Source: a virus (Duplodnaviria; Heunggongvirae; Uroviricota; Caudoviricetes). From it: a stretch of 64,000 bases of DNA. Positions 9,941-61,575 of this stretch are shown in pieces; position 1 is the stretch's first letter; every line of letters starts with the position of its first letter. A program made the translations under genes and the position numbers. The notes under the pieces are model-generated. The model had not been told where the DNA came from, ran no database searches, and worked only from the letters and a program-made list of their open reading frames with translations. The stretch lies in IMG/VR virus record IMGVR_UViG_3300025944_000008; one strand, written 5' to 3'.

Positions 9941-9970
9941 GGCCGACGCTGGCCCTCTTTTTTAGCTACT
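9941..9970 (+). terminator. rho-independent terminator with TTTTTTAGCTA motif
   Basis: Hairpin gggccgacgctggccc followed by tcttttttagcta; convergent gene ends on both sides. Confidence 0.55.
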
Positions 9971-10163
9971 ACATCGAGGTGAATTTGAACTCGCGCCGGC
10001 AATTCGGGCAGCGTAAGAGCTTCCCGCCCTTACCGTCCGGGGCTTCCATCGCCGTTCGGCCGCAGCCAGGGCAGCGCATCGATCGAGGCTGGCCCTTCGA
10101 CTTCGGATCTACCGCGGCGCCCGGCTGAAGGCCGAGCTGCCTTGTTCCTGTCTTCACGGACAT
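9969..10163 (-). CDS. zinc-ribbon protein
   Basis: CPGC...CPNC motifs; ATG at 10163 two nt after stop of upstream gene. Confidence 0.45.
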   Translation of the reverse strand: MSVKTGTRQLGLQPGAAVDPKSKGQPRSMRCPGCGRTAMEAPDGKGGKLLRCPNCRREFKFTSM

Positions 10164-10164
10164 G

Positions 10165-10803
10165 TCAGCCTCCAAAGACGGTGGCACCTTCGGGGATGTC
10201 GCACCCCGGGCCGCCGCTGTTGACTTCCTCGATCGTGACGGGCTGCTCGGCTGCCTTGAGAGCCGCTTCTGCCTTCTCCGCCTCGGTCTTGGCCTCGGCC
10301 TCTTCGCGGGCAGCCTTCTCTGCGGCTTCTTCCTTGGCGGCCCTCTCCTTCGCCAGGCGCTCTTGGACGACAGAGAAGGACCGCTTCATGAGATCCTTCC
10401 TGAGCTCCTCGGCCGCTGCTTCGATCTCCTCTTCCGTCATGCCTGCCTGCCCGGAAGTCTTCTGCAGCAGCTTGATGAGGATGTGCTTGTTCATCTCGGC
10501 GAGGGCGAGGATGTTCAAGTCCATGTGCTCGATGCTGTCCTGCATCGCCTGCTCGTTGCCCCAGATCTTACCGATCTCGAGCGTCGAGTTCTTGAAGAGC
10601 GCCTCGACGACGGCACCGAGCTTGTTGTGCTTCTCGGTCCACTCGCTGACGAGGGTGGCCAAGCTGTTGTGCTTGTCCATCCACTCCTTGCCGAACCTGG
10701 TGACCTTCTCGGCGATGTCCTTGACCGCCAGAAGCACCTTGCCGTCGTTCTTGGCCTGCCGATCGCTCTGCTTCGCCCTGTTCAGCCCGATATGCTTGCT
10801 CAT
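10165..10803 (-). CDS. coiled-coil protein
   Basis: 212 aa, Glu/Lys/Ala-rich heptad-like C-terminus (EEAAEKAAREEAEAKTEAEKAEAALK). Confidence 0.55.
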   Translation of the reverse strand: MSKHIGLNRAKQSDRQAKNDGKVLLAVKDIAEKVTRFGKEWMDKHNSLATLVSEWTEKHNKLGAVVEALFKNSTLEIGKIWGNEQAMQDSIEHMDLNILALAEMNKHILIKLLQKTSGQAGMTEEEIEAAAEELRKDLMKRSFSVVQERLAKERAAKEEAAEKAAREEAEAKTEAEKAEAALKAAEQPVTIEEVNSGGPGCDIPEGATVFGG

Positions 10804-11097
10804 GATGATGCCTTGGCCTCCCCGAGTACCACGACCTTCTGATTCTCGATCGAGGCAATCTCGTTGTTGAGTTGAGCGATCGGCCCTCCGCCGATGGCGC
10901 CCAGAATTTCTTCGATCACATCTTCAGGAACGATCTCCGGCATTGCCCCCGGAGACCGTAACGCCTTCACCTGACGCCCGTCCTTGCCGATGAAGTTCTT
11001 GTCGAGGTAATCGTGCAGCGCCTCCCAGACGGACAGCAAGTGCTTCCGTCGGTTGAGCGCTTCGTTTGCCTCCTTGAGCGTCTTCGCATCGTTCATG
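10800..11097 (-). CDS. hypothetical protein
   Basis: ATG at 11097 with gaggag RBS; stop overlaps next start (ATGA). Confidence 0.45.
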
Positions 11098-11254
11098 CAA
11101 AAAACTCCTCGTTGCCTGGATAAGGACTTGTGTGGAGATCCCAGGACTCCATCCAGCATCGTGGGGCGGTGTCACATTCACCAAAGGCGGTGTTGAGACC
11201 ACGCCGTGAGCATACCAGCGGAGGTCGGCCGGGCAGCGCAGCCCGGTCCTATGA

Positions 11255-11779
11255 TTAGGCTCCCCTCACTTTCTTATGCATCCGGTTCGTCTCTCGAGCG
11301 TGCCACGCCTGCTCATTCGCAGTCTCATTCCGCAGTACATGCATGCCGAGCCTGCCCGCCCCAAAGAGCTCTCGCAGAGCCACGCCGGCGGCCTTCACCA
11401 TGTCCGCCTGCGACTTCAGCTTCCTGATGTGCTTGCAGTCGCCACCATCGATGGAGTGCTTGATCGTCCAGTCGGGGCAGGAGCAGGTGAAGCGCTCGAT
11501 CTTCGGGTGGTACTTGACCACGTACCGCTTGCCCGAATCTCCAGTGACGGGGAATGAGGGACCCTTGCCGATCTTGTGGAGATGGACCATCTCGGAGTAC
11601 TTCTTCAGCTTCTCGTCGGCGCGTGGATCGTTCTTCACAGCCTCGGTGAAGGTCTTGCTGCGAAGGTTCTGCCGGAACGACGTCCACTTCTTCCCGTTGC
11701 CGGGCATGTCGAAGTGCTGATCCAACTTCTCTTCGAGAGAAGCGGCAACCTTCAAGAAGCTGAAGAGTCCTGGGTTCAT
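11255..11779 (-). CDS. SWIM zinc-finger protein
   Basis: CSCPDW...CKH (CxCx..CxH) SWIM signature; ATG 11779 overlaps upstream stop. Confidence 0.55.
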   Translation of the reverse strand: MNPGLFSFLKVAASLEEKLDQHFDMPGNGKKWTSFRQNLRSKTFTEAVKNDPRADEKLKKYSEMVHLHKIGKGPSFPVTGDSGKRYVVKYHPKIERFTCSCPDWTIKHSIDGGDCKHIRKLKSQADMVKAAGVALRELFGAGRLGMHVLRNETANEQAWHARETNRMHKKVRGA

Positions 11780-19639: not shown

Positions 19640-20001
<362 letters not shown>

Positions 20002-20436: not shown

Positions 20437-20919
20437 ATGGCTCGAAGGAGCATCGCCAAGACGGCCATCGAGGGAGGCCGTCGGAAGTCGTGCCGTATTA
20501 GAGAAGAGCAGGAGGATAGCAAAGAGCGCGCGGCCTACAAGATGTACTGCCGCAGCGCCACCTACGATGAAGAAGCCGTCGAGCCACGATCTATTGCGCT
20601 CGGTGGCCACTGGACGGGACGCAAGAATAGGGATTTCGCCGACAAGCTCGGTCCACTGCGTCGATGGCTGGAAGCTCGGGTTGGTAAGCCGTGGGATAAA
20701 ATCAAAAGCGAAGTCATCTCTCGCTTCGATTCGAACTCTCTGGCTGGCCGCCACGCTCTCGGGCATCTCGAAGGTTTCGTGACGCTGCCGAATGCGCCCT
20801 ATAGCTGGATGCGTCGCAAGAGTGCTCCCTACCCCGGAAGTCTGTTTGTCGACTCGAAGGGTATTCTCCGGCAGGCTCCCAAGACTGCTGAGCAGTACGA
20901 GAAGTGGAGGAAGTCGTAG
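20437..20919 (+). CDS. hypothetical protein
   Basis: aaggagg RBS before ATG. Confidence 0.55.
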   Translation: MARRSIAKTAIEGGRRKSCRIREEQEDSKERAAYKMYCRSATYDEEAVEPRSIALGGHWTGRKNRDFADKLGPLRRWLEARVGKPWDKIKSEVISRFDSNSLAGRHALGHLEGFVTLPNAPYSWMRRKSAPYPGSLFVDSKGILRQAPKTAEQYEKWRKS

Positions 20920-20920
20920 G

Positions 20921-20965
20921 TTGTAAGCGCCCGCTCCGTCATAGACGGGGTGGGCGTTTTTTTAG
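20921..20965 (+). terminator. terminator with TTTTTTTAGCT motif
   Basis: Imperfect GC hairpin then tttttttagct. Confidence 0.45.
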
Positions 20966-21002
20966 CTTTCCCATCCAGCCAAAGCGGGTCGACGCTGTCT
21001 TC

Positions 21003-21287
21003 ATGAAGGAAGACCCTCGCATCGAGCTTGCTCGGGTCAAAGAACAACTACGACGAATACGTCAAGTCGTTGACCTACATCGCAAGCTCGGCGAAGACAC
21101 TTCCTTTGAACTGCGAGAGCTGCGGCGCAAGATCGTACGCGTTAAGGCGAACCTGATTCAGTTCTCCCTCCACTATCGACGTCTGTCTGAGCTAGCGCTT
21201 GCGACGGGAAGCGAAGATGCGAAGCAGCTTGTCGAGGCGTGCAATGAGGTGATTGCGAAGCTGGGAAAGAGCGTCTCAGAGCTCTAG
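21003..21287 (+). CDS. coiled-coil hypothetical protein
   Basis: Protein-like from MKEDPRIELARVKEQL; weak RBS. Confidence 0.35.
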   Translation: MKEDPRIELARVKEQLRRIRQVVDLHRKLGEDTSFELRELRRKIVRVKANLIQFSLHYRRLSELALATGSEDAKQLVEACNEVIAKLGKSVSEL

Positions 21288-24774: not shown

Positions 24775-24830
24775 TCTGAGATAAGACAGTAGTCGCGGAT
24801 CACTTTTGTGATCCCTGTCTTATTTTGCTC
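24775..24830 (+). terminator. rho-independent terminator
   Basis: Long hairpin agataagacag...ctgtcttat followed by ttttgct. Confidence 0.5.
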
Positions 24831-24846
24831 AACAAGGAGCGTTCAG

Positions 24847-27552: not shown

Positions 27553-28920
27553 ATGAGCAAAGCCATTCTGGTTGCCGGATTGGGGTTCGGCGACGAGGGT
27601 AAGGGAACCATCACGCAATACCTCGCCAGGGAGACCAAGGCCGACTGGGTCATTCGCTACAACGGGGGCGCTCAGGCGGCGCACAATGTCTATGCTCAGG
27701 ACGGCCGACATCACACGTTCTCGCAGTTTGGTAGTGCGACGTTCGAAGGAGTCCCCACCTTCATGTCTCGTCACACTATCATCGAGCCGTCTGCCTTCTT
27801 GAGCGAGTTCTTGCAACTCGAGCGGCTCGGCATCGAAAATGCGAATGTCCTCGTGGCATTCGATCGCAACGCTCTCGTCGTCACGCCTTTCCATAAAGCC
27901 GCGAACCAGCTTCGCGAGATTCTTCGTGGCGACTGGCGCCACGGGAGCTGTGGAATGGGGATCGGCGAGACCAAGCAGGACTCGCTCTCTTCACACAACG
28001 ATACGATCGCCGTCGGTGATCTTTCAGATAGAACAACGCTTCTCCGCAAATTCAAGTCCGTACAGGACAGGAAGTATGAAGAGTTCAAGACACAAGTCCT
28101 GGACGTGTCCCTTCCAGACATCGCCCATCGCGCTCTTCGCTGGTTCACCTTCCCAGCCGATCGGGTGGAGCACATGGTGGACCAGCTCCACGATCTTGCG
28201 GGCCTCTTCAGAACTGTCGATGCCGATAGCCTGCCGTGCATGTTCCGAGGAAAGAATCTAGTCTTCGAAGGCGCACAGGGAGCGCTACTCGACCAAGACT
28301 ACGGCTTCCAGCCCTACACTGCTTGGACGGATGCAACCTTCACTGGAGCTCGTCAGATACTCGACGCAGCCGGGTATGACGGCGACATCTGGAAGGTCGG
28401 AGTCATGCGTTCATACATGACGCGCCATGGAGCCGGCCCGCTACCGACGCAAGATGAGATCTTCGGCATCGAGGACGGCAAAATCAAGGAGCTCGTCTTC
28501 GACAAGCACAATGGGATGGGATTGTGGCAGCGAGAGTTCCGTATTGGAACGCCGGACGTCTTATTGACGCGCTACGCTCTCGAGGTCCTCGGCGGCGTCG
28601 ATGAGATCGCCATGACTCACATCGACCAACGCGATCATTTCATGTGGCTCTGCACTGGGTACTCTGTCTACGAAGAGGAAGACGAGGTCATGTTCCAATT
28701 CGGCAGCCCAGCTCATCGAGCGCTCGACATTCACGTCGAGAAGCATCCGACCTATGCCGGGCAGGAGTACCTAGCAAAGGCACTGTCCAGGGTCGTTCCG
28801 ATCTATGAGCGCGCCCCGAAAGACACCGACGCCTTCCTGCACATCATGAAGCAACACCTAAATACGCCGATCGGCATCATCTCGACAGGACCTGGGCCGG
28901 ACAAGAAGTTCAGAACCTAG
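27553..28920 (+). CDS. adenylosuccinate synthetase family (PurA/PurZ-like)
   Basis: GDEGKG P-loop, GGAQAAHN, FEGAQGALLD, ISTGPGPD motifs. Confidence 0.75.
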   Translation: MSKAILVAGLGFGDEGKGTITQYLARETKADWVIRYNGGAQAAHNVYAQDGRHHTFSQFGSATFEGVPTFMSRHTIIEPSAFLSEFLQLERLGIENANVLVAFDRNALVVTPFHKAANQLREILRGDWRHGSCGMGIGETKQDSLSSHNDTIAVGDLSDRTTLLRKFKSVQDRKYEEFKTQVLDVSLPDIAHRALRWFTFPADRVEHMVDQLHDLAGLFRTVDADSLPCMFRGKNLVFEGAQGALLDQDYGFQPYTAWTDATFTGARQILDAAGYDGDIWKVGVMRSYMTRHGAGPLPTQDEIFGIEDGKIKELVFDKHNGMGLWQREFRIGTPDVLLTRYALEVLGGVDEIAMTHIDQRDHFMWLCTGYSVYEEEDEVMFQFGSPAHRALDIHVEKHPTYAGQEYLAKALSRVVPIYERAPKDTDAFLHIMKQHLNTPIGIISTGPGPDKKFRT

Positions 28921-47709: not shown

Positions 47710-47783
47710 ACTCCCGATCGGATTCGAACCGATACTGCCCGCGTTTTGAATGCGGTGCCTCTACCAGTTGGGCTACGGGAGCA
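47710..47783 (-). tRNA. tRNA (type I; loop UUCAAAA, anticodon CAA?; A31-C39 mismatch)
   Basis: T-arm ATCGGTTCGAATCCGAT. Confidence 0.4.
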
Positions 47784-47788
47784 TGAGT

Positions 47789-47863
47789 GCCGACGAGGAG
47801 ATTCGAACTCCTACTGTTCCGCTTCTAAGGCGGACGTCTCTACCAGTTGGACTACGTCGGCAT
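47789..47863 (-). tRNA. tRNA (type I; anticodon TAG)
   Basis: AC stem TCCGC/GCGGA loop CTTAGAA. Confidence 0.45.
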
Positions 47864-47950
47864 GGTGCTCGGGATGAGACTCGAACTCACACGGACTTTC
47901 GCCCACCGGCTTCTGAGACCGGCGCGTTTACCAGTTACGCCACCCGAGCA
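47864..47950 (-). tRNA. tRNA-Leu(CAG), CCA encoded
   Basis: Type II; stem CCGGT/GCCGG (G-U) loop CTCAGAA. Confidence 0.6.
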
Positions 47951-47957
47951 GATTTGT

Positions 47958-48041
47958 GCGAACGGGGAGACTCGAACTCCCACGGCCTTTCGGCCACCAG
48001 CACCTCAAGCTGGCGCGTCTACCAGTTCCGCCACGCTCGCA
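47958..48041 (-). tRNA. tRNA-Leu(GAG)
   Basis: Type II; stem CCAGC/GCTGG loop TTGAGGT. Confidence 0.6.
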
Positions 48042-48043
48042 TT

Positions 48044-48119
48044 GGTACAGCGCCAGGGACTCGAACCCTGCTCATCCTCCGTGTGAGAGAGGCATCACCA
48101 CCTGGTGAACTGCGCTGCG
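48044..48119 (-). tRNA. tRNA-Val(CAC), CCA encoded
   Basis: loop CTCACAC. Confidence 0.55.
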
Positions 48120-48123
48120 CAGT

Positions 48124-48190
48124 CGCTCGCATCGGAATCGAACCGATCTCCAAGGCGTATGAAGCCTCGTTCCTCCCAGAGGTCGAGCGG
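48124..48190 (-). tRNA. tRNA-Met/Ile2(CAT), compact (reduced D-arm)
   Basis: loop TTCATAC; 67 nt. Confidence 0.45.
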
Positions 48191-48191
48191 T

Positions 48192-48263
48192 AGCGGGCCC
48201 ACGAGTTGAACGTGGAATCTCTAGGTTATGAGCCTAGTGAGTTGCCCTTTCTCCAGCCCGCAG
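48192..48263 (-). tRNA. tRNA-Met(CAT)
   Basis: AC stem CTAGG/CCTAG loop CTCATAA. Confidence 0.55.
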
Positions 48264-48264
48264 T

Positions 48265-48338
48265 GTCCCTGGCCGGATTCGAACCGGCACTCTTCCGCTT
48301 AGGAGGCGGCTGCATGATCCAATCATGCTGCAGGGACG
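48265..48338 (-). tRNA. tRNA-Arg(CCT)
   Basis: loop CTCCTAA. Confidence 0.55.
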
Positions 48339-48344
48339 TGTTGT

Positions 48345-48416
48345 GCTCTCGGCAGGAATCGAACCTGCAACTCAGCCTTCGGAGGGCTGCATGATGTCCG
48401 TTTCACCACGAGAGCA
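48345..48416 (-). tRNA. tRNA-Arg(CCG)
   Basis: stem CAGCC/GGCTG loop CTCCGAA. Confidence 0.6.
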
Positions 48417-48542
48417 GAACTCGAGAAACACGTCATAGTAGAAGTGCCGTCTTGCGTAGATCACCAGGCGGTACATCCCTCTTTTGACGTACCTGACGTC
48501 TTGCCTGTGAATCCATGGAATCTTGAAAGGCTCTTCCATCAG

Positions 48543-48614
48543 CGTCCTCGCCAGGATTCGAACCTGGAATACAACGTTCGTAGCGTCGCGTGATATCCGT
48601 TTCACTACGAGGAC
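48543..48614 (-). tRNA. tRNA-Arg(ACG)
   Basis: loop CTACGAA. Confidence 0.6.
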
Positions 48615-48849
48615 AAGACATCTTGAGATCCGTAGCCGCGGTTTTGTTCTATGCCATCATTCGTCTAAGCAGCAACCCGGAGACTCGCCGGACAGGGTCA
48701 ACATCTCCTGTTTGCCTTAGTGCAGGCCGAGTTGTGGTTCAGCGGATTTCTCCTCCCACAGAGCTCGGACACTCGTCCTGAGCACCCGCGAACTTCCTCA
48801 GCGAGACGATTCCTTCCGCTCGCCGCGATGGCTCGAAATCAAGATGCGG

Positions 48850-48920
48850 AGCCCCGGGAGGGAATCGAACCCTCTTTTCATCCTTACCAAGGATGCGTCC
48901 TGCCATTGAACGACAGGGGC
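48850..48920 (-). tRNA. tRNA-Thr(GGT)
   Basis: stem CATCC/GGATG loop TTGGTAA. Confidence 0.6.
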
Positions 48921-49046
48921 CTATCAGTGTGCGCAGGCGGGCTATACTCCCGCGTCTCCGGCGTGGTGCAATCGACTTTCGTCTCCCACTCCCAGGTGCT
49001 TTCGCCCTCACTGGCTGGTGTCGTGGTTCAGACTTCTGCGCGTCGA

Positions 49047-49121
49047 TGGTGGAGCCGATGGGAATCGAACCCACCGCGGTCTGCTTGCAAAACAGTCCTG
49101 GTCACCAGACTTCTCGACCCC
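49047..49121 (-). tRNA. tRNA-Ala(TGC), CCA encoded
   Basis: G3-U70 in acceptor GGGGTCG/CGGCTCC; loop TTTGCAA. Confidence 0.5.
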
Positions 49122-49122
49122 A

Positions 49123-49395
49123 TTATGCTGCTTCACTCTCTGGCAAGATCGGATCACAGCCCCGTCGCCGGTTGCAGCCCTGATGGGCCAGGCGGAGGTT
49201 GTCGATGTGGTCCGTGCCTCCCCCCGACCTCGGGATGATGTGGTCGAAGGTGATGTACATCTCGCTGAAGACGTCCTTGATGCGGCGATCGAGGGCCTCC
49301 TTGCAGATCATGCAGGTCATCCCGTCCCGCGCCATCAGCTTTGTCACTCGCTGCCAGCGCCACTTGTGATGAAAGAGCCGCCGCGCTTTCGCCAT
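49123..49395 (-). CDS. HNH endonuclease (short)
   Basis: FDHIIPRSGGGTDHIDNLRLAHQGCNRRRG. Confidence 0.6.
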   Translation of the reverse strand: MAKARRLFHHKWRWQRVTKLMARDGMTCMICKEALDRRIKDVFSEMYITFDHIIPRSGGGTDHIDNLRLAHQGCNRRRGCDPILPESEAA

Positions 49396-49414
49396 GAGTG
49401 GATCCTACCATGAG

Positions 49415-49487
49415 TGGAGACGAAGGGGATCGAACCCTCGACCTCATCGTTGCGAACGATGCGCTCTCCCAACTGAGCTACGTCCCC
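49415..49487 (-). tRNA. tRNA-Ala(CGC)
   Basis: G3-U70; D-arm TAGCTCAGTTGGGAGAGCG; loop TTCGCAA. Confidence 0.65.
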
Positions 49488-49488
49488 A

Positions 49489-49563
49489 TGGTGCGGAAGG
49501 AGGGTATCGATCCCTCTACCTCTGGCGTGTCGAGCCAGCGCTCTACCAGTGAGCTACTCCCGC
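49489..49563 (-). tRNA. tRNA-Val(GAC), CCA encoded
   Basis: stem CTGGC/GCCAG loop TCGACAC. Confidence 0.65.
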
Positions 49564-49575
49564 GTGCTTCTTCAG

Positions 49576-49648
<73 letters not shown>

Positions 49649-49651
49649 GTA

Positions 49652-49690
49652 CTAGCTAAAGAAACGGGGCGAACCCCGTTTCGTGCTACC
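49652..49690 (-). terminator. terminator (minus strand) with TCTTTAGCTA motif
   Basis: On minus strand aacggggttcgccccgtt hairpin + tctttagctagtac. Confidence 0.55.
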
Positions 49691-49695
49691 CCTGC

Positions 49696-50664
49696 TTACG
49701 ACTTCCGAATGCTGCCGTTGACGCCCGCGTCCTTGAGCGTCGTCTGCAGCGTGGTGAGCGCCTCGCGGCTCGAGGTCGACTCGAGGGCCTTCGTGGCGAT
49801 CTCCGCGTTCTTCTGGTTGGCTTCCTTCAGCGCGATCTGCAGCTCTTCGTTCAGCTTCGTCAGCCGAGCGTTCTGCTCCGTAAGAGCCTTCTTGTCCGCC
49901 TCGTAGAGCGCCTTCTCGCTCGCCCGATCCTTCTCGAGGAGCTCCTTGGCGTGGTTGTGATCCCGAGTCAGGCGGTTGCTCTCGATTGCCACTGCCTGCT
50001 TGACCGCCTTCTCGATCTCGCCCAGGTGACCGGCGACCGCGGCCCGAAGATCGATCAGCTCCTTCTCACGGAGCTTCAGCTCGTCTTCCCGCTGCGCCCA
50101 GATCTTCTGGAGCTGGTCCTGGCGAGCGAGCTCTTGGATGTTGCGCACCCGGACCTGCTCGTTCCACGCATCCAGATCCGCCTTGCGGGTCTGCTTGGTC
50201 GTGTACTCGTAATCGGCCTGTTCGCGCTCGCGCTCCTTCTTCGTCGCGTTCCAGTCCTCGGCGTTCTTCGTGCGGGCTTCGAGGATCTCCTTCTCGAGCG
50301 CCGCCTTCTGCTCGTCGTGCTCGGCCTTCAGCACATCGAGGTGCTCGAGGATGACTCGGGCGCCGTAGAGCTTGGTGAGTTCCTTGGCCTCGAGGTCGAT
50401 GTTCGTCTTGACGTCCTGGAGGAGCGAGAGCTTGTTGGCCAGCTCCTCGTTGATCGTCGAAAGGGACTTCTGGGTTGCCAGGCTCGCCGCGGTGACGGCC
50501 TGCGCCGCCTTGCTCACTTCCAGCTCGGCGATCGAAGAGCGGGTCGCCTCGGCCGCCCGCGCCTGCAGCTCGATCTCCTTCTCCGACATCCCCGGCGGAA
50601 CGTTGAGGTTGGAGAAGGCGATCTTGGTCTCGATACGATTGCGCGAACGCTTCTTGTCGCTCAT
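49696..50664 (-). CDS. long coiled-coil protein
   Basis: 322 aa from ATG 50664 (aaggagag RBS); continuous heptad-like E/K/A/L composition. Confidence 0.55.
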   Translation of the reverse strand: MSDKKRSRNRIETKIAFSNLNVPPGMSEKEIELQARAAEATRSSIAELEVSKAAQAVTAASLATQKSLSTINEELANKLSLLQDVKTNIDLEAKELTKLYGARVILEHLDVLKAEHDEQKAALEKEILEARTKNAEDWNATKKEREREQADYEYTTKQTRKADLDAWNEQVRVRNIQELARQDQLQKIWAQREDELKLREKELIDLRAAVAGHLGEIEKAVKQAVAIESNRLTRDHNHAKELLEKDRASEKALYEADKKALTEQNARLTKLNEELQIALKEANQKNAEIATKALESTSSREALTTLQTTLKDAGVNGSIRKS

Positions 50665-50739
50665 GGTCTCTCTCCTTGGAAACGCTAAAGGGCAAAATTG
50701 CCCGCGCTTCCTTATCTCTGCGAGAGAGAACTTTTGCGA

Positions 50740-50815
50740 TGGTGCTCCAGGTCGGGATCGAACCGACGCCTCCGCTTTTTCAGAGCGGCGCACAGACCCT
50801 CTATGCTACCGGAGC
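50740..50815 (-). tRNA. tRNA-Phe(GAA), CCA encoded
   Basis: stem CCGCT/AGCGG loop CTGAAAA. Confidence 0.65.
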
Positions 50816-50891
50816 GTTGGCACCTCTGCCGGGTCGCTAGGCCGGATCGCCTCGGTAACGGCCGAGGAGCTCTGCATTTGAGCTACGGAGA

Positions 50892-50967
50892 TGGCGCCTG
50901 CGACGAGGATCGAACTCGCCGAATCTCCCGTGACAGGGGAGCGTCCACACCAGTGGACCTCGCAGGC
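50892..50967 (-). tRNA. tRNA-Asp(GTC), CCA encoded
   Basis: stem CTCCC/GGGAG loop CTGTCAC. Confidence 0.65.
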
Positions 50968-51034
50968 ATCGGACGATGAGGTGAGCGCTCACCTCTCTCT
51001 GCGCGGAGCGACAGATAGCCTTCGTCCTTGCTAT

Positions 51035-51111
51035 TGGGGTGAACGACGGGAGTCGAACCCGCTAGCACCTGATCCACAATCAGGCGGCTCCTCCATTTTG
51101 CCTTCGTCCAC
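51035..51111 (-). tRNA. tRNA-His(GTG), CCA encoded
   Basis: loop TTGTGGA; discriminator C73. Confidence 0.65.
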
Positions 51112-51116
51112 CATAC

Positions 51117-51193
51117 TGGTCCGTTGGGACGGGATTCGAACCCGCACCTTCTGATCCACACTCAGACGTGCTGCCATTGAACACTACCCACGG
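51117..51193 (-). tRNA. tRNA-His(GTG)-like second copy, CCA encoded
   Basis: stem TCTGA/TCAGA loop GTGTGGA; acceptor one mismatch. Confidence 0.4.
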
Positions 51194-51195
51194 GG

Positions 51196-51267
51196 TGCGC
51201 CCTGAAGGATTCGAACCCTCATATCTCGCTAATCAGGCGAGTGTCCTAACCGTTGGACGAAAGGCGC
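51196..51267 (-). tRNA. tRNA-Ile(GAT)
   Basis: stem CTCGC/GCGAG loop CTGATTA. Confidence 0.65.
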
Positions 51268-51280
51268 ATGGCAAATCTAG

Positions 51281-51352
51281 TCGGAGTGGGGAGGATCGAA
51301 CTCCCGATCTCTCGGTCCCGAACCGAGCGCGATACCGCTTCGCTACACTCCG
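51281..51352 (-). tRNA. tRNA-Pro(CGG)
   Basis: stem CTCGG/CCGAG loop TTCGGGA. Confidence 0.65.
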
Positions 51353-51484
51353 ATTGTGGCAACCGTCTTCAGGTAGCGAACCTGAAGAGTTCTTCCCCGC
51401 CCCGGCTGTCGCAGGTCGGCATGTAAGGCTGTGCCCTCTTCGTCCGGTCACACTGCACCGGCACTGCGTCGAGGCTACGTAGAG

Positions 51485-51556
51485 TCGGGATGGCCAGGAT
51501 CGAACTGGCGACCTCTCGCACCCCAAGCGAGCGCGCTACCGCTGCGCTACATCCCG
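51485..51556 (-). tRNA. tRNA-Pro(GGG)
   Basis: loop TTGGGGT. Confidence 0.65.
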
Positions 51557-51565
51557 TGATTCTAC

Positions 51566-51640
51566 TGGTCAAGGTGAGAGGACTCGAACCTCCAGCCACT
51601 CGGTCCCAAACCGAGAGCTCTACCATTGAGCTACACCTTG
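51566..51640 (-). tRNA. tRNA-Pro(TGG), CCA encoded
   Basis: loop TTTGGGA. Confidence 0.65.
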
Positions 51641-51709
51641 ATACTCGCACCGGATCAAAACCGTTCCTCTCGACACCAGGCCGAGCGTGCATCACACACT
51701 GCTATTGAG

Positions 51710-51785
51710 TGGTCTCCCGCACGGGAGTTGAACCCGTATTGTCCGCGTGAAAGGCGGTTCTCCTTGCCAGTTAGAGGAGCGGGAG
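51710..51785 (-). tRNA. tRNA-Glu(TTC), CCA encoded
   Basis: loop CTTTCAC. Confidence 0.6.
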
Positions 51786-51860
51786 ATTGTCACGCTTCAA
51801 TGGGGCTTCAACCCATTCCTCGGGCTTTGGAGGCCCGTATGCGCCAACACCGTATTTGCG
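51786..51860 (-). tRNA. tRNA-Trp(CCA)-like (acceptor stem unclear)
   Basis: AC stem CGGGC/GCCCG loop CTCCAAA; T-arm ATGGGTTGAAGCCCCAT; 5'/3' ends do not pair cleanly. Confidence 0.35.
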
Positions 51861-51936
51861 TGGTGACCCCACCGGGATTCGAACCCGGACACCTGCCTTG
51901 AGAGGGCAGTCACCTAACCGTTAGTGGATGGGGCCG
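51861..51936 (-). tRNA. tRNA-Glu(CTC), CCA encoded
   Basis: stem CTGCC/GGCAG loop CTCTCAA. Confidence 0.65.
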
Positions 51937-51939
51937 TAA

Positions 51940-52010
51940 TGGAGGTCCGCTGCGGAGTCGAACCGCACTCACGAGGTTTGCAATCTCGTTCGCTCCCAGA
52001 ACTGCGGACC
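51940..52010 (-). tRNA. tRNA-Cys(GCA), CCA encoded
   Basis: loop TTGCAAA with A31-C39 mismatch. Confidence 0.55.
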
Positions 52011-52015
52011 ACTTG

Positions 52016-52087
52016 CTCCAGAGACAGGATTCGAACCTGTGACCTTCCGGTTAACAGCCGGCTGCTCTTCCGCTGAGCTACACTGGA
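52016..52087 (-). tRNA. tRNA-Asn(GTT)
   Basis: loop CTGTTAA; D-arm TAGCTCAGCGGAAGAGC. Confidence 0.55.
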
Positions 52088-52303
52088 ATGATCATGACGA
52101 AGACCAAAGCCGAAACTTCTCTGCCTCTCGACTACGAGGTCACCTCCGCTCGTCCTACGTGGGTAACCATCACTCTTCCAGACGGTAGTCAGTACCAAGC
52201 AAGCATTGTCACATCTGTGGTGGGCGTGAAGACCAAGCCCGGATCTGGTGACGTTTCCTTCGATTTCGAAATCAACTGGCAAGCACGCTGGGAGAAAGTC
52301 TAG
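52088..52303 (+). CDS. small hypothetical protein inside tRNA array
   Basis: 71-aa protein-like ORF; weak RBS. Confidence 0.35.
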   Translation: MIMTKTKAETSLPLDYEVTSARPTWVTITLPDGSQYQASIVTSVVGVKTKPGSGDVSFDFEINWQARWEKV

Positions 52304-52375
52304 AGCCGACGGTCGGAATCGAACCGACAACCTTCGCTTTACAAGGGCGCTGCACTTCCGTTGTGCTACGTCGGC
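52304..52375 (-). tRNA. tRNA-Thr(TGT)? (weak anticodon stem)
   Basis: loop CTTGTAA; good acceptor/T-arm. Confidence 0.45.
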
Positions 52376-52462
52376 AGAGTCACCCTAGTCCTCTCCGCAC
52401 CCGGAGTCCTTTGCCTCGTCAGGCGGTGCTCCATGGAGACCAGAGGAGACGACATCGGGCGG

Positions 52463-52532
52463 TTCCGGGTGAGGGACTCGAACCCCCACATACGGTGTCA
52501 GAGACCGCTGTCCTACCATTAGACGAACCCGG
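52463..52532 (-). tRNA. tRNA-Gln(CTG)
   Basis: stem GCGGT/ACCGT loop CTCTGAC. Confidence 0.6.
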
Positions 52533-52542
52533 AGTAGAAACG

Positions 52543-52615
52543 TTGGATCGGGCTCTGGGTGTCGATCCCAGCAAGCAGGATTTCAAAGACCCCGCCCCTC
52601 GCCGGAGGCGCCCGA
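52543..52615 (-). tRNA. tRNA-Gln(TTG), CCA encoded
   Basis: loop CTTTGAA; T-arm CTGGGATCGACACCCAG. Confidence 0.5.
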
Positions 52616-52773
52616 ACAAAAGACCGAGTGCTCTACCAATTGAGCTAGTGGGTTGAGAGAGCTCGCGAGACTTCTCAAGGAGACCAGAGGCCCGCACCGT
52701 CGACGGCCATCGACGGAGACCAAGGGGCCGCACCTTCCCACCCAGGACTCGAACCTGGATCACCCGGTTTTAG

Positions 52774-52844
52774 AGCGCGTGGCGGGGATTGAACCCGCGC
52801 AGCCAGTTTGGAAGACTGGAATGCTACCGCTACATCACACGCGC
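52774..52844 (-). tRNA. tRNA-Gly(TCC)
   Basis: stem CCAGT/ACTGG loop CTTCCAA. Confidence 0.65.
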
Positions 52845-52848
52845 ATTG

Positions 52849-52920
52849 TGCTCCCGTAGGGTGTCGAACCCTCGCCAACGGATTAAAAGTCCGCTGCTCT
52901 ACCGCCCGAGCTCCGGGAGC
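52849..52920 (-). tRNA. tRNA-Lys(TTT)
   Basis: loop CTTTTAA. Confidence 0.6.
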
Positions 52921-52973
52921 TGACTATGCTGCTGTCGGCTCGGGCTTGATTTTCGTTCCATGCTTCACCTCAG

Positions 52974-53045
52974 TGGGTGCCGTGGGAGTCGAACCCACAA
53001 CCAACGGATTAAGAGTCCGCTGCACTTCCATTGTGCTAGGCACCC
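52974..53045 (-). tRNA. tRNA-Lys(CTT)
   Basis: loop CTCTTAA. Confidence 0.65.
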
Positions 53046-53142
53046 AAAGCCCCGACTGTGTCGCGACGGCACATGCCGGAGCCAGTTTCTTCGCTGTCGA
53101 CTATTCGGTTTTCAAAGTCGCGGCGAGAGCTACTCGCCTCGG

Positions 53143-53226
53143 TGCCGGAGCCCGGACTCGAACCGGGTTGTTCCTGGGGACGACTGTTTTACAGACAGCC
53201 TCGGTGACCTTACCGTCAACCCCGGC
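53143..53226 (-). tRNA. tRNA-Tyr(GTA)
   Basis: Type II; stem GCTGT/ACAGT loop CTGTAAA. Confidence 0.6.
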
Positions 53227-53307
53227 AAACGTGCCGGCTCACTCGCCGGCAGCACTTCTTACTACGCTACTGCATCACCTTCATCGGAGCACTCTCCTGA
53301 ATTCCCC

Positions 53308-53383
53308 TGGTGCGGATGACCGGATTCGAACCGGCTACCTCATGCTTGGCAAGCACGCGTGCAACCAAGTACACCTCATCCGC
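53308..53383 (-). tRNA. tRNA-Gly(GCC), CCA encoded
   Basis: loop TTGCCAA. Confidence 0.6.
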
Positions 53384-53389
53384 GTTCAG

Positions 53390-53460
53390 AGCCCCCGGCG
53401 AGAATCGAACTCGCATTCCTGGTTTACGAAACCAGTGTCCTGCCGTTGAACGACAGGGGC
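53390..53460 (-). tRNA. tRNA-Thr(CGT)
   Basis: stem CTGGT/ACCAG loop TTCGTAA. Confidence 0.6.
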
Positions 53461-53533: not shown

Positions 53534-54574
53534 ATCACTGCTGCCGATCCGCACCTCCAAAAACGAAGAGGGCCGGGAGACTCTCGTCTGCCGACCCTCT
53601 AGCAAGTTCCCTTATCGGGAGTCCTTCTAGGGGCCGGCACCTTCCCAATTGGCCAGATGACCGGCGAAGAGGCGGATGCTCGGCTGCTCCTGGCGATCGC
53701 ACGAATAGCCAATGAGCGAGGCGCCCGAGCGCTTCGTCCCTTTGGTCGTCATATGCGAGGTCCTGGTCAGCACTGTCTTGATCCTGTTTATAGGTCTACG
53801 CAGGCGCGGAAATAACGTCAACTACTTTTTTCGAGTATCTCGGATCTCGCGAGAATCAGAAAGACAAAAGGCCCTCGGTGTCAACCGAGAGCCTTCTGCC
53901 TGCCCACCGCCGAGTGGCACCACCACGAAGTGTCTTTTCGTCAGTCGTGGTCTGACAGCCAGGTACGAACGCGCAGGACGCGTCGCAACATCAGACTGCC
54001 AGACAAGCAGGCGGTCGTCAACTTGACTCTCCTACTGTATGGGGCAAGATCGGCATCGGTCGTGCGGACTTTGTTTTAGTAGTCGCCAGCGAGCCGGTGA
54101 ACGTACCGGGGAGAGTTCGGTCGGACGTGCAGACGTAGCACGGAGCTCCCAGGCGGGTCTCATTCCCAGAGGGGCGGCGCAGCGATGAACCCTGACGATG
54201 CACGATTTGACGACCGTGACTGCCAGTAGATCTCGCTGGGGAACACCGCCCATCCGCGTCCTGATTCGAAAAATCCTCCCCCGAGCGGGAGGGGCAAGCG
54301 GCCCTGTCGAGACCGAACACCAGAACGGAAATAGGCTTCACTGACCTGTTCCTGCGTTCGGTACGGAAGCGTTCTTCAGAAGCACGACGGCGACATGCCT
54401 CGAAAGGGGTGTCCGGTGCGGAGAACGACGAGGGCCGATCAGCTCTACTTCTCCCTCGCCGGGTAGAAACTTGGCGAGCGGTTGAAATAGTAGAGGGGAA
54501 GAGGCGGTAGAGGTCTATCTAGCGTCAGTGAAGAAGAAGGACTACTTCCTGAAGCATTTCCGCGCCTTACAAGA

Positions 54575-54632
54575 AATCCCTCGCTCCCTCTTCAGGTACT
54601 TCCAGGAAAAAGAAATCCGCTCGCTCGAAGGA
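54575..54632. repeat. direct repeat AAGAAATCC(C/G)CTCGCTC x2
   Basis: Two near-identical 17-nt units ~33 nt apart. Confidence 0.45.
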
Positions 54633-54705
54633 GTATTTTTCGAACGGATCTTCGTATGTCGCTTTTCGGTCTTTTCTTGTCTTGAGCCCTTGACTACATC
54701 TGTCT

Positions 54706-54760
54706 TCGTGTCTTAACTACAAGACGTAAAGAATGTCTTGGGCTGAAGACAAGACAAAAT
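54706..54760. promoter_or_regulatory. operator-like inverted repeats GTCTT-N6-AAGAC (x2) plus extra GTCTT/AAGAC half-sites
   Basis: gtcttaactacaagac and gtcttgggctgaagac immediately upstream of 54778 gene. Confidence 0.5.
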
Positions 54761-54777
54761 CCGAAAGAGAGGCCTCA

Positions 54778-55401: not shown

Positions 55402-55536
55402 ATCCCGCCCCGCAATCTCTCCCGACTTCCTGTTATAAGTCTAGTAGATGGAGACGCGCATTTCGGTGCGAGTCTCATCGGTAGGACCCAATGGGTTCTC
55501 GCGGGGAAACCCGCGCAGTTTTAGCCGGGAGACATC

Positions 55537-58128: not shown

Positions 58129-58214
58129 CTGGCCGCATCTGCAAGCGGCGCTGCCTGGAATGTGAAGAGATCTACTTCGTGACGTTGCCACCAATTCCCG
58201 ACTTTCTGAGGTAA
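58059..58214 (+). CDS. small Cys-rich protein (alternative frame)
   Basis: 51 aa MRTWLRRVWCKFWHH...CKRRCLECEE. Confidence 0.25.
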   Translation: MRTWLRRVWCKFWHHGLWKTEEVAGRICKRRCLECEEIYFVTLPPIPDFLR

Positions 58215-58342
58215 GATCAGTCGGAGAGCACTTCGGTCCTCGGTTCTGCTCGGAGCGTTGTCATTGGAAAGATGCGAACCCCCCCTGCGCATCTCCCCGA
58301 CCAGTGATAGCGCTCCGAGTAGAGCTGGGGACCGCTTCTTAG

Positions 58343-58693
58343 CTACTTGGCTCCGTACCACGTGTGATCGAAGAACTCCAAGTCAGACGTCGCCAGGTGC
58401 CCGTGGACGAGCTTCGGGTTGAGCCCGAGCTTCTGGGCCCACTCCTGAGCGATCTCCTTGAGAGAGGTCTCGAGCGGCTGCGGCTTGGCGTATATCGACG
58501 CCGTGCGCCCGGTTGAGATGGCGGCGAGAAGAGAGCAGATCATCCTCGTCGATCGCCCTGTCTGACGATCTCCCCAGTTGAGGCTGATGCCTTCTGCTGC
58601 GGCGAGCTGCTCGCGCTCATTCACACGCTTTCTGGCGAACCCCTCGAACGGTGTGAGGCTGAGGGCTTTGCGGACGTCTTCGGCCGAGAGCAT
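58343..58693 (-). CDS. hypothetical protein
   Basis: Protein-like from MLSAEDVRKALSL... Confidence 0.3.
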   Translation of the reverse strand: MLSAEDVRKALSLTPFEGFARKRVNEREQLAAAEGISLNWGDRQTGRSTRMICSLLAAISTGRTASIYAKPQPLETSLKEIAQEWAQKLGLNPKLVHGHLATSDLEFFDHTWYGAK

Positions 58694-59106: not shown

Positions 59107-59285
59107 CCTGCCGCATCTGCAATCGTGGACCCCAGGAGTGCAAGGGCTACCTGAAGCGGGTCAACGAGAAGGGGCAGGACGGCATCTGGGAGTGCCGTCC
59201 CTCCTGCTCCACAGAGCTCCCAGCCAACGAACGCGTCCTCGCTGCCCTGGAGGATGTGATGGGGACTGACCTCAGGAAGAACTGA
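59103..59285 (+). CDS. small zinc-ribbon protein
   Basis: CRICNRG...CRPSC; ATGA overlap. Confidence 0.4.
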   Translation: MTCRICNRGPQECKGYLKRVNEKGQDGIWECRPSCSTELPANERVLAALEDVMGTDLRKN

Positions 59286-59750: not shown

Positions 59751-60009
59751 CCCCCTTCACATCATCGAAGCTGCCTGCGGGCATCAGACGAAAGTCCTTC
59801 GCTTCTTCCACCCATTCTCAAATCTCGACGTTCCTTGCCATAGCTGCTGGCAGACCTCCAGAGAGCTCAAAGAGGCCGCGGAGCAAGAACGCATCAGACT
59901 CCGGGATAAGGAAAACGAACTGAGACGATCCAAAGATTCCACCGAGTCAAGCAAGTACCCGACGGCCGCGGGGAGAGACCAGGTGGAGGAGGACGCCAGT
60001 TCATTCTGA
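59705..60009 (+). CDS. hypothetical protein
   Basis: Protein-like from TIDPLHIIEAACGHQTKV; start uncertain. Confidence 0.3.
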
Positions 60010-60029
60010 TAGGTAAAAAGAAAACGGCC

Positions 60030-60062
60030 CCGATGTGCTGGGGCCTTTTTCTTAGCTACCAT
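60030..60062 (+). terminator. terminator with TTTTTCTTAGCTA motif
   Basis: ggccccgatgtgctggggcc hairpin + tttttcttagctacc. Confidence 0.55.
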
Positions 60063-60068
60063 GTGACT

Positions 60069-60266
60069 ATGCCGCGGATCCGCACCCCTTCAGATCAAAC
60101 GCGCTGCACCGCGATGTGTGCGAACACTGGCTCTCGCTGCCTACGTCCAAGAGCATCCTACGCTGATGACCAGTTGTGTGGCCTTCACTGGCACCACAAG
60201 AGGCGGAAGGAGCAGGGGATACCGCATCCAGGGCGGGCGGCTAGGAAGCCCGAGCAATCCTCCTGA
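60069..60266 (+). CDS. small Cys/His-containing protein
   Basis: MPRIRTP... CTAMC...CGLHWHH. Confidence 0.3.
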   Translation: MPRIRTPSDQTRCTAMCANTGSRCLRPRASYADDQLCGLHWHHKRRKEQGIPHPGRAARKPEQSS

Positions 60267-60858
60267 CCTGGAGATCGAGCCTGGCGGCCCGCACGGCGCT
60301 CTTCGAGACAGACCGGATGATGAGGGCCGCCGTGATGATGCCGCCGGCGATCGCCAGGCAGACTAGCAGGATCGCTAGACGCGCTGCGGCACTGTCGTCC
60401 TCGTCTTTGTCGTCCTTCGAGAACAGCACATCCGCGACATCTTCGAACGCCCCAGGAACGTGCTCGACTGCCTGGCTGATGTTGTAGACGTCGGCGAAGG
60501 TGTTCCACGCCGCGATGCCTCCGCTTGCCAGAGACCGCTCCTTCCACGCCCGCACGAGCGATTGGATGGTGATCGCGGTCCCAGACCCGATCACTGGAAT
60601 GATGAGCGCCAGGTAGCCTAGGTTGCACATCGCCTGCACGTACTTCGGCGGTAGCTTATTCAAGCCATCCGGCCCGGCGATGAAGGCGAGGACGATGAGG
60701 TAGCACCACGAGAACCCCGCACTCGCCATGATGGCTCCCATCCACGTCATGAAGCGCGGGAGTCCTCCGATGTGCTTCGTCTCCGCCCAGGATTTCCCTA
60801 CCGACCACGAGTTGAACCAAGAAATCGCGAAGTTCAGAAACAGCAGAAGGATGATCAT
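60241..60858 (-). CDS. multi-pass membrane protein
   Basis: gagagg RBS; four or more hydrophobic helices. Confidence 0.55.
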   Translation of the reverse strand: MIILLLFLNFAISWFNSWSVGKSWAETKHIGGLPRFMTWMGAIMASAGFSWCYLIVLAFIAGPDGLNKLPPKYVQAMCNLGYLALIIPVIGSGTAITIQSLVRAWKERSLASGGIAAWNTFADVYNISQAVEHVPGAFEDVADVLFSKDDKDEDDSAAARLAILLVCLAIAGGIITAALIIRSVSKSAVRAARLDLQVRRIARAS

Positions 60859-60982
60859 GGTTGGCCTCTCGAACTGAACAGGGGTTGAAAGTAACTTCTT
60901 CCAGCTCTTATCCCTGCCTGGAGAATTTCTTCCGCAGAAGAGATAAGAATCTGTGGGGAAACTACTTTCTTTGACAGGGGGA

Positions 60983-61303
60983 ATGATGCCAGCAAAGAGA
61001 GACGACGGATCGGTCTGCTTGAACTGCACCGGGCACTGGAACGTGGAGCTCCGCGGGGACAAATACCTGTGTGAAATCTGCTTCGAGTCCATGCCCGGTA
61101 CGTACGTAATCGGTGGCTCTCAGGCGCACTCATCAGAAGCACTCGTGATGCGCCAGCAAGCATACTGCACCAATCGGCTGATGATGGAGCTACAGAATGT
61201 CGGTCTCAACTCGCTGTTGAGGAGGGTTCTCGGAGATGGCAAACGAAGACGAGAAGGGGAGAGGAAAGTTGTCGCTGACCGACGACGTCGGCGCGACCAG
61301 TGA
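60983..61303 (+). CDS. zinc-ribbon protein
   Basis: agggggaATGATG; CLNC...CEIC. Confidence 0.4.
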   Translation: MMPAKRDDGSVCLNCTGHWNVELRGDKYLCEICFESMPGTYVIGGSQAHSSEALVMRQQAYCTNRLMMELQNVGLNSLLRRVLGDGKRRREGERKVVADRRRRRDQ

Positions 61304-61541
61304 GATCGAAAGCCTCAAGCAGCAACTGGCTACGGCCACGAACGGGCTGGCAGTATCCCGCAGTCAGTTGGACGATCTCCGCATGGAGAACAAGAAGCTT
61401 CTCGACCGCACACTACAGCTAGAGCTTGGCCTACGAACCTTCGCTGCCGAGTCCAACTGGGCTCGCAGCGGCATCGCGTACACCTGGGTCGCTCCCTCGA
61501 ACCCGATGGAATTCGCCACAGGAGCGCTCAAGGTGCAGTAG
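61236..61541 (+). CDS. coiled-coil hypothetical protein
   Basis: 101 aa. Confidence 0.4.
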   Translation: MANEDEKGRGKLSLTDDVGATSEIESLKQQLATATNGLAVSRSQLDDLRMENKKLLDRTLQLELGLRTFAAESNWARSGIAYTWVAPSNPMEFATGALKVQ

Positions 61542-61575
61542 AGAATCGGGGCAGAGAGCTGCCCCTTTTCTTAGC
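61541..61575 (+). terminator. terminator with TTTTCTTAGCTTA motif
   Basis: ggggcagagagctgcccc hairpin + ttttcttagctta. Confidence 0.55.

Follow-up and report, generated by a model that had tools for sequence, protein, structure and literature searches.

The usual model of an intrinsic terminator asks for no more than a hairpin and a U-tract, and the locus described here raises the question of why a short sequence should recur, well conserved, beyond the U-tract. The stretch analysed, IMG/VR virus record IMGVR_UViG_3300025944_000008 (64,000 nucleotides (nt), called the window below), is a section of a very large uncultivated soil phage genome with 59% GC. An original prediction, made from its letters, had noted that several GC-rich hairpins are followed by a T-run and then TTAGCTA, and had proposed an added function for this tail. 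The best explanation of these sites, judging by their sequence, is that they represent Rho-independent-type terminators, predicted at the gene ends of a huge phage, and that the tail, generalized as TTAGCYA and termed the box, is a clade-specific, terminator-distal member of the terminator module. Most likely the box would help to stop or insulate transcription.

Gene calls were drawn from three assemblies of the same genome (L002, L005 and L009), and the window was joined with two flanks from this genome to give an 82-kb composite. Contigs of 0.2-1 Mb from soil and rhizosphere encode the proteins of the window as well. The GenBank phage set contains no close relatives, which are also nearly absent from IMG/VR; the nearest GenBank phages are 462-735 kb 'uncultured phage' records with 35% amino acid identity.

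Enrichment of the box and its linkage to hairpins

The frequency of the motif, by which the original prediction had proposed to judge itself, lies well above expectation, with seven copies of TTAGCTA in the window against 0.95 expected, a number reached by none of 100 shuffles. The broader pattern TYTTAGCYW is found nine times in the window (1.18 expected; 0 of 100 shuffles), and TAGCTA, the palindromic core, is the top over-represented hexamer of the window. In the composite all 11 occurrences of TTAGC[TC][AT] lie directly 3' of a hairpin and T/C tract, and only one of them, S8, has a weak hairpin (Table 1). Conversely, nearly all terminator hairpins at the gene ends of this phage have the box immediately behind them. 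The flanks contribute the bidirectional pair S9, one TTAGCTC site and one TTAGCTT site. The best 12 matches in a weight-matrix scan (scores 15.7-21.1) are all hairpin-linked, with the caveat that one is the reverse read of the palindromic S3 and another, at 15137, is inside a gene and was set aside. At 13720 a TAGCTA that lacks the preceding TT forms an ordinary stop/start junction of two genes and stands outside the set. Scanning the window against Rfam at the gathering threshold returned tRNAs and a transfer-messenger RNA (tmRNA) only, with no match for the box terminators.

All the sites listed in the original prediction are present, with some corrections of detail. The claim of TTAGCTA at eight sites holds for most of them, but those at 20921-20965 and 61541-61575 have TTAGCTT instead. 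The site noted as weak at 58300-58342 does possess a box (58339-58345) but no convincing hairpin, and the related sequence reported at 7695-7735 is a minus-strand terminator whose tail reads TTATCTA. To the site at 60030-60062 we can add that it is bidirectional, its minus arm bearing TTACCTA.

A manual count over all instances gives a consensus in which TTA is invariant, the G is kept in about 80% and the C in about 75%, and the following T/C and A/T positions are conserved at lower levels. Conservation declines with distance from the T-tract, and the left half of the palindrome is kept better than the right, which fits a directional read and not a symmetric dimer. Strain variants show a single nucleotide polymorphism, which is located in a loop.

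Table 1. Terminators bearing the box or a variant of it, and occurrences of the (G/T)ATAAG motif. Free energies (dG) are in kcal/mol; z, fold score against shuffles; MVP, major vault protein.
Feature	Position	Strand	Elements	Context
S1	9934..9968	+	extended hairpin 9934-9961, box TTAGCTA 9962-9968; dG -24.5, z -4.0	hairpin 2 nt past TAG stop (9930-9932) of DNA ligase gene 8463-9932; convergent gene ends 10165
S2	20925..20968	+	hairpin 20925-20959, TT, box TTAGCTT 20962-20968	follows gene 20437-20919; same-strand small open reading frame 21005-21287 downstream, conserved, unannotated, without (G/T)ATAAG
S3	33627..33667	+	hairpin 33627-33660, box TTAGCTA 33661-33667	follows MVP homologue 30828-33623; A-run and GGTATAAG (33684-33691) downstream, then SpoU methylase gene at 33724
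S3 tails, seven lineages			TTTTCTTAGCTAAAAAA, TTTTTCTTAGCTAAAAAA, TTTTTTAGCTAAAAA, TTTTTTAGCCAAAAAA, TTTTTAGGTGG, TTTTCTTTATCCAAAAG, TTTTTTAGCTAAGG	MVP gene ends
S4	43844..43877	+	hairpin 43844-43868, TC, box TTAGCTA 43871-43877; z -4.1	after gene 43616-43840 (stop TAG); then small membrane-protein gene 43923-44117
S5	49653..49682	-	hairpin 49682..49661, T, box TTAGCTA 49659..49653	after gene 49696-50793 (-); tRNA-Ala (49648..49575) 4 nt past box, first of 24 further tRNA genes
S6/S6'	60010..60058	both	bidirectional, core hairpin 60026-60045; z -4.4	
S6 plus arm		+	TTTTTCTTAGCTA, box 60052-60058	convergent gene ends 60241
S6' minus arm		-	GTTTTCTTTTTACCTA, box variant TTACCTA 60016..60010	
S7	61541..61577	+	hairpin 61541-61572, overlapping box TTAGCTT 61571-61577; z -4.2	begins at TAG stop of gene 61236-61541; convergent HAD-family gene ends 61637
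S8	58334..58345	+	GCTTCTTAGCTA; no convincing hairpin (z 0.18)	last CTA is the TAG stop of convergent gene 58343-58693 (-)
7696 variant	7685..7728	-	hairpin 7728..7697, CTTTT, TTATCTA 7691..7685	after gene 7758-8027 (-); last CTA is the TAG stop of convergent gene 7449-7691 (+)
S9	L009:3696-3730	both	TGGCTAAAAAG-hairpin-CTCTTAGCTA	convergent genes 35 nt apart
S10			terminator with box	separate promoter-like motif 26 nt away
S11			box TTAGCTT	same-strand gene follows, no (G/T)ATAAG
(G/T)ATAAG motif	6973, 8414, 24780, 30376, 33686, 55434, 58731, 60942	+		upstream of genes
(G/T)ATAAG motif	50716, 53616, 60912	-		upstream of genes

Geometry of the hairpin and the box

The hairpins ahead of the box are unalike in sequence and size, with stems of 7-17 pairs. 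A stable GC-rich stem-loop, with a dG of -11 to -28 kcal/mol, is found at 13 of the 14 arms, S8 being the exception, and at the seven arms tested against shuffles the fold z ranges from -2.7 to -5.4. The stem begins 0-11 nt past the stop codon. Directly 3' of it, S1-S7 and the 7696 variant have a T-tract of 4-8 T residues interrupted by C, and at S9F, S10 and S11 the pyrimidines are drawn into the stem and T-rich sequence resumes past the AGC. In the minimum-energy folds the GC core is often lengthened at its base, a purine tract on its 5' side pairing with the 3' T/C tract so that the interrupting Cs are placed opposite Gs. The box sites display three features of intrinsic terminators, namely a stable stem (except at S8), a 3' T-tract and, on the transcribed strand, a location just past a stop codon or between convergent genes.

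The AGC of the box starts 1-5 nt beyond the last predicted pair in 13 of the 14 arms (8 nt at the 7696 variant), and its invariant A lies about 6-10 nt beyond the GC-rich core stem. Given that bacterial RNA polymerase normally releases its RNA 7-9 nt past the stem, the box would be the DNA at, or just ahead of, the active site upon termination. The orientation of the box is that of the transcribed strand, following the upstream gene at all sites and on both arms of the bidirectional terminators. At S9 the 35-nt gap between the two stop codons comprises box, hairpin and box and nothing else, with a TAA abutting the box.

Conservation of the box at orthologous gene ends

At three orthologous gene ends (S2, S3 and S10) the box is kept in relatives while the sequence of the hairpin changes. 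The end of the MVP gene, S3, could be followed through seven lineages with 41-70% MVP identity, each of which has a strong hairpin of different sequence followed by a box tail (Table 1). At S2 five lineages keep the T-run and TTAGC(T/C/A)(A/T), and their hairpins and the remaining spacer are unalignable. The orthologous hairpins at S2 and S3 each have a dG of -21 to -29 kcal/mol. The orthologue of S10 reads TTATCCA in L047, a phage with 50% GC that has at least six genes in common with the present one at 38-50% amino acid identity; its terminators end in TTTTTTAG(T/C/G)(C/T)A, often followed by TGGTATAAGAT. The genomes with the box are, besides the present one, L013, L018, L059-L061 and L047. 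The box tail is lacking at the terminators of L016 (54% MVP identity), L021, L033, L001 and L015, at those of L062 and L063, two IMG/VR phages that share the ligase (52%), and at those of LR756500/1, which are distant, AT-rich giant phages. Unrelated phages and bacteria in the same data have no box.

The retention of the box across relatives despite this turnover of hairpins means that it is under selection. It is a feature of this clade and not a general property of the polymerase or of GC-rich DNA. Since it is confined to the clade and yet persists where GC drops from 59% to 50%, its reader is more likely to be phage-encoded than a property of the host. The proposal that what lies past the T-run forms a conserved element in its own right, with some added function, is therefore supported by its retention in 5-7 lineages at gene ends whose hairpins have been replaced.

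Two further observations concern these modules in relatives. A 13-nt identity, TTAGCCATCAGAC, is present behind unrelated hairpins at the non-orthologous positions L018:4296-4320 and L009:3696-3715 (window-equivalent about 69964), which may reflect an exchange of terminator tails between phages. In L060 (12869-13349) about 400 nt are inserted between the MVP gene and the next gene and are flanked by two box-bearing terminators; this looks like a cassette gained between terminators.

Gene context and a distinct, probable promoter motif

About half of the arms (S1, S6 and S6', S7, S8, both of S9, and 7696) run towards a convergent gene's 3' terminus or lack room, and the remaining arms have a same-strand gene downstream. 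In the composite the box occurs in none of seven divergent intergenic regions, and it is absent from the other non-coding DNA that was looked at (promoter regions and gene-free stretches). Its placement at gene ends and between convergent genes in the composite fits a stop module in all contexts. Examined as a promoter, the box does not hold the position upstream of genes and is missing from divergent regions, and with about half of its arms facing convergent 3' ends or lacking room this option of the original prediction is disfavoured. Antitermination, also proposed there, is unlikely because the sites are at gene ends and not at operon starts.

The position upstream of genes, in divergent as well as co-directional gaps, is occupied by a distinct motif, (G/T)ATAAG, which is probably the main promoter of the phage. 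It often takes the extended form AGATAAGR, which occurs six times in the window against 1.7 expected, and an A-rich, GAAA(T)TTC-like element precedes (G/T)ATAAG by 9-14 nt. Relatives conserve the motif as GGTATAAG or TGGTATAAGAT. The copy at 30376 stands just 5 nt ahead of the ATG, which suggests a leaderless mRNA. At S3 and S10 it is this kind of separate promoter-like motif that stands downstream of the box, and most boxes have no ATAAG downstream. The spacing between box and (G/T)ATAAG is 18-20 nt in the S3 orthologues, 26 nt at S10 and 0-11 nt in L047.

Hairpins with T-runs also occur in leaders, right after (G/T)ATAAG (24780-24846; 53616..53567), and there they have no box; the box thus marks gene-end hairpins and not leader hairpins. 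One of the leader elements precedes the entire tRNA array. A structured leader of about 90 nt (55434-55536) lies before gene 55537 and ends in a hairpin, TTTTAGCC and the Shine-Dalgarno sequence. These three leader elements may be attenuators.

Possible functions of the box

The reading we prefer, to which we assign a probability of roughly 0.4, is that the box is read on the DNA, where either a phage-encoded roadblock protein would bind it or a phage-modified polymerase would respond to it with a sequence-specific pause. The invariant A would stand at the predicted point of RNA release, with the remainder of the box at or just ahead of the polymerase active site, and the putative reader would enable the short, C-interrupted U-tracts to terminate efficiently or controllably, possibly in a switchable manner. 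Transcription units would thereby be insulated in both gene arrangements. A bolder version, which we regard as doubtful, is that this lineage of soil giant phages possesses its own stop system, in which a putative phage factor (a DNA-bound roadblock or polymerase accessory) reads TTAGCYA at every gene-end release point and makes termination factor-dependent and switchable during infection. Termination could then, for example, be tight early, with later read-through into the promoter-less genes and the tRNA array behind S2, S4, S5 and S11.

Several points weigh against a reader on the DNA. Canonical intrinsic termination needs no downstream consensus, 7 nt is short for a protein site, and no candidate reader protein was identified. 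S8 has a box without a good hairpin, and the extension at the base of the stem beats random flanks in energy at S1, S6 and S7 only. Furthermore, S2, S4, S5 and S11 precede a same-strand gene or the tRNA array without another recognisable promoter, so that those terminators must leak, be antiterminated or be followed by a restart; such promoter-less downstream genes would suit a role in regulation or processing no less well than a simple strengthening of termination. As regards phage transcription proteins, neither a DFDGD-type motif nor a Pfam match in the large proteins pointed to a phage RNA polymerase in the 82 kb covered of a 0.2-1 Mb genome. Some 4.8-5.6 kb to the left of window position 1, at L005:17884-18702, an operon whose other products are large proteins of unknown function (1106, 1124 and 2218 residues) encodes a 272-residue protein of the sigma-70 family, with regions 2 and 3 and a helix-turn-helix.

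The main rival, which we consider unlikely, places the function of the box in the RNA, as a processing or fail-safe site: the single-stranded UUAGCUA of read-through transcripts, at the foot of a long stem, would be cut by a host or phage endoribonuclease, leaving a protective 3' hairpin on the upstream mRNA and either freeing the downstream RNA (tRNAs or the next gene) or destroying antisense read-through at convergent junctions. This would accommodate both gene arrangements, including the promoter-less genes behind S2, S4, S5 and S11, the position of the S5 box 4 nt ahead of a tRNA, and the lack of a box at leader hairpins, which are not expected to be cut. The box starts right where the extended stem closes and is left largely unpaired by the predicted folds, and its variable gap of 0-7 nt to the core hairpin would be tolerable for a single-strand-specific nuclease. 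RNase E prefers RN|WUU, and the TTAGCTT sites (S2, S7 and S11) match this preference, but the commonest form, AGCUA, breaks the rule with its A at +2. No nuclease gene was identified, and if termination is efficient the box would rarely enter the RNA, yet it is the best-conserved part of the module. A distinctly less probable alternative treats TAGCTA as a minimal -10-like promoter for a phage-specific holoenzyme, comparable to TATAAATA in T4 late genes, such that a single place would serve both to end one unit and to restart the next. The genes and tRNAs that follow S2, S4, S5 and S11 on the same strand without (G/T)ATAAG would be explained in this way; at S5 a start 6-8 nt past TAGCTA would hit the 5' end of the tRNA, the gene for a sigma-70 family protein lies a short way left of the window, and the T4-type PeSL cassettes likewise join stem-loops with promoters (PMC2839356). 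However, 8 of about 16 arms (S1, S6, S6', S7, S8, both of S9, and 7696) face a convergent end or lack room, S9 having only 35 nt between two stop codons, and the box occurs in none of the seven divergent regions and never without a preceding hairpin or T-tract. The promoter position is held by the enriched (G/T)ATAAG, whose distance from the box varies over 0-26 nt outside the S3 orthologues, and the final base of the box is A where sigma-70 -10 elements need T.

Two other alternatives dispense with a role in transcription or in the RNA, and we hold both to be very improbable. The box could be a site acting at the DNA level, such as a recombination linker for the shuffling of gene cassettes, a methylation or nicking site or a primase start, and be tolerated only in the non-coding DNA beside terminators. 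The palindromic core, the identical 12-mers TTTTCTTAGCTA behind the unrelated hairpins of S3 and S6, the 13-nt TTAGCCATCAGAC common to non-orthologous sites of two phages, and the precedent of PeSL-type recombination all speak for this; against it, the box tracks the transcribed strand and not one DNA strand, the palindrome is broken asymmetrically in its variants, a length of 7-12 nt does not suffice for homologous recombination, and other non-coding DNA (promoter regions and gene-free stretches) is free of it. Alternatively, the box might have no dedicated function and result from AT-rich tails combined with stop codons on both strands (TAG forward; TAG and TAA in reverse) that close reading frames beside the hairpin. 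TAG does make up 33% of stops, at S8 and 7696 the convergent gene actually uses the final CTA as its stop codon, and the S9 box is adjoined by a TAA. But the box is equally conserved where there is no convergent gene (S2-S5, S10 and S11), its central G and C are conserved though no stop codon needs them, and only at S1 does the forward TAG share the reading frame of the upstream gene. Moreover, conservation at orthologous ends outlasts the divergence of the remaining spacer, and unrelated phages of similar GC have terminators without the box.

Several narrower readings were tried and rejected. The box is not the -35 element of the (G/T)ATAAG promoters, as the spacing varies. A promoter on the opposite strand (TAGCTAAGAAAA compared with GATAAGAA) would have its key A replaced by C, would at S9 and S6 yield an RNA of about 25 nt ending in its own terminator, and has a matching upstream element at S1 only. 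A nut/boxA antitermination site is made unlikely by the location at gene 3' ends and by the hairpins after promoters, which have no box. Pairing of the box with the stop-codon region to close a longer stem beats random flanks at S1, S6 and S7 only, and as a back-up stop codon the box is in frame at S1 only. The upstream genes show no significant preference for TAG (4-5 of 7 versus 33% overall). A 2-aminoadenine (Z) genome with weakened U-tracts is not supported because the adenylosuccinate-synthetase-like gene matches only cellular PurA structures. As for an integron attC-like core, TTAGCTA violates GTTRRRY, and no integrase was found.

If a distal sequence is indeed more conserved than its hairpin (down to 41% protein identity and across 9 GC points), this would imply an extra, specific component of termination, be it a terminator that is switchable or assisted by a factor, or an RNA-processing signal coupled to termination. 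Transcription in huge phages has hardly been studied, and the box would give access to the way in which they partition many small units; it might find use as a compact insulator part and as a landmark for annotating gene ends in this clade. Were the box dispensable, the finding would reduce to a clade-specific sequence habit of ordinary terminators.

Other features of the genome

The proteins encoded in the window include rIIA/rIIB, ThyX, two ATP-dependent ligase-like proteins, a WGR-PARP protein and a 931-residue MVP homologue. The genes for the MVP homologue and WGR-PARP (40464-41888) lie in one plus-strand block that is conserved together in relatives, and give this phage two components of the vault particle. 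Among cellular MVPs, the nearest come from metagenome-assembled genomes of Myxococcota, a hint at this group as hosts; viral MVPs have reportedly already appeared in a 2023 preprint. An adenylosuccinate-synthetase-like gene (27553-28920, +), labelled PurZ-type by PHROGs, stands beside a ligase-like gene in all relatives.

The window has 43 tRNA genes on the minus strand (44.1-53.5 kb) and one tmRNA (19640-20000, +), the tag of which is ANDNVRVQSNLSAPLQAAA. The tRNA genes (44117-53460, -) are interleaved with small open reading frames, and unusual anticodons are predicted among them (Tyr-ATA, Leu-AAG twice and Ile-TAT). The small open reading frame behind S2 encodes about 94 residues of coiled-coil-like sequence and was not called in the assembly of this genome; it can be aligned codon by codon with L013/L014, and L018 and L060 have it too. 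It starts about 36 nt past the S2 box, with neither a promoter nor a Shine-Dalgarno sequence visible. Stretches of 0.2-1 kb are free of genes at 53774-54777, 59751-60240, 9969-10164 and 58129-58342. The last of these has a promoter-like GAGGTAAGATC at about 58210, some 120 nt before the S8 box, and may encode a small RNA; the Rfam scan returned nothing in it.

Comparison with known systems

The sites resemble intrinsic terminators with extended hairpins in having a GC-rich stem-loop and a T-rich tract, able to pair with an upstream purine tract, after stop codons or between convergent genes, and by their folds S6 and S9 are two-sided units like bidirectional intrinsic terminators. They differ in that the known model has no consensus past the U-tract, whereas here conservation peaks in the 5-7 nt that follow, and the T-tracts are short and C-interrupted. 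A dependence on specific sequence is familiar from other polymerases: T7 RNA polymerase responds to the class II signal ATCTGTT, and polymerase I uses a T-rich element with a downstream Reb1/TTF-I site. There, as proposed here, termination needs a short specific sequence or a protein bound just downstream of a T-rich release element. Those systems involve other polymerases and other sequences, the variant TTATCTA only loosely recalls ATCTGTT, and no single-subunit polymerase was found in the 82 kb of this 0.2-1 Mb genome.

The stoperators of mycobacteriophage L5, which Brown et al. are said to have described in 1997, are reportedly short asymmetric sites of 13 bp, intergenic and near gene ends, which stop elongation when a phage protein is bound. 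They share with the box the character of an asymmetric, repeated intergenic motif oriented with transcription, and provide the nearest model for how it might act. They lack coupling to hairpins and belong to a temperate-phage repressor system; the core of the box is 5-7 nt and no repressor was identified.

We found no description in the literature of a conserved box behind freely varying hairpins. What appears new is the combination of intrinsic terminators with a conserved distal box in one huge-phage lineage; terminator motifs of giant phages are already on record for phiKZ and 201phi2-1, where they were obtained by motif search around mapped 3' ends (PMC11512511). In those giant phages too sequence motifs are associated with terminators, but the conserved sequence forms the hairpin itself and the phages have their own RNA polymerases, whereas here the hairpins vary, the conserved part comes after them and no polymerase gene was seen in the 82 kb. 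The PeSL cassettes of T4-type phages are about 100 bp long, have a sigma-70 early promoter at their core and invariably stand ahead of a gene (PMC2839356). They are similar in joining a repeated intergenic terminator stem-loop to a regulatory sequence, as S3, S10 and the L047 sites join terminator, box and promoter-like motif, but only 7-12 nt are common to the present sites, the promoter-like motif follows S3 and S10 only, and the box also occurs where no gene follows. By analogy, the box would be functionally closest to the L5 stoperators and to the polymerase I T-rich element with its bound factor, as a member of neither class.

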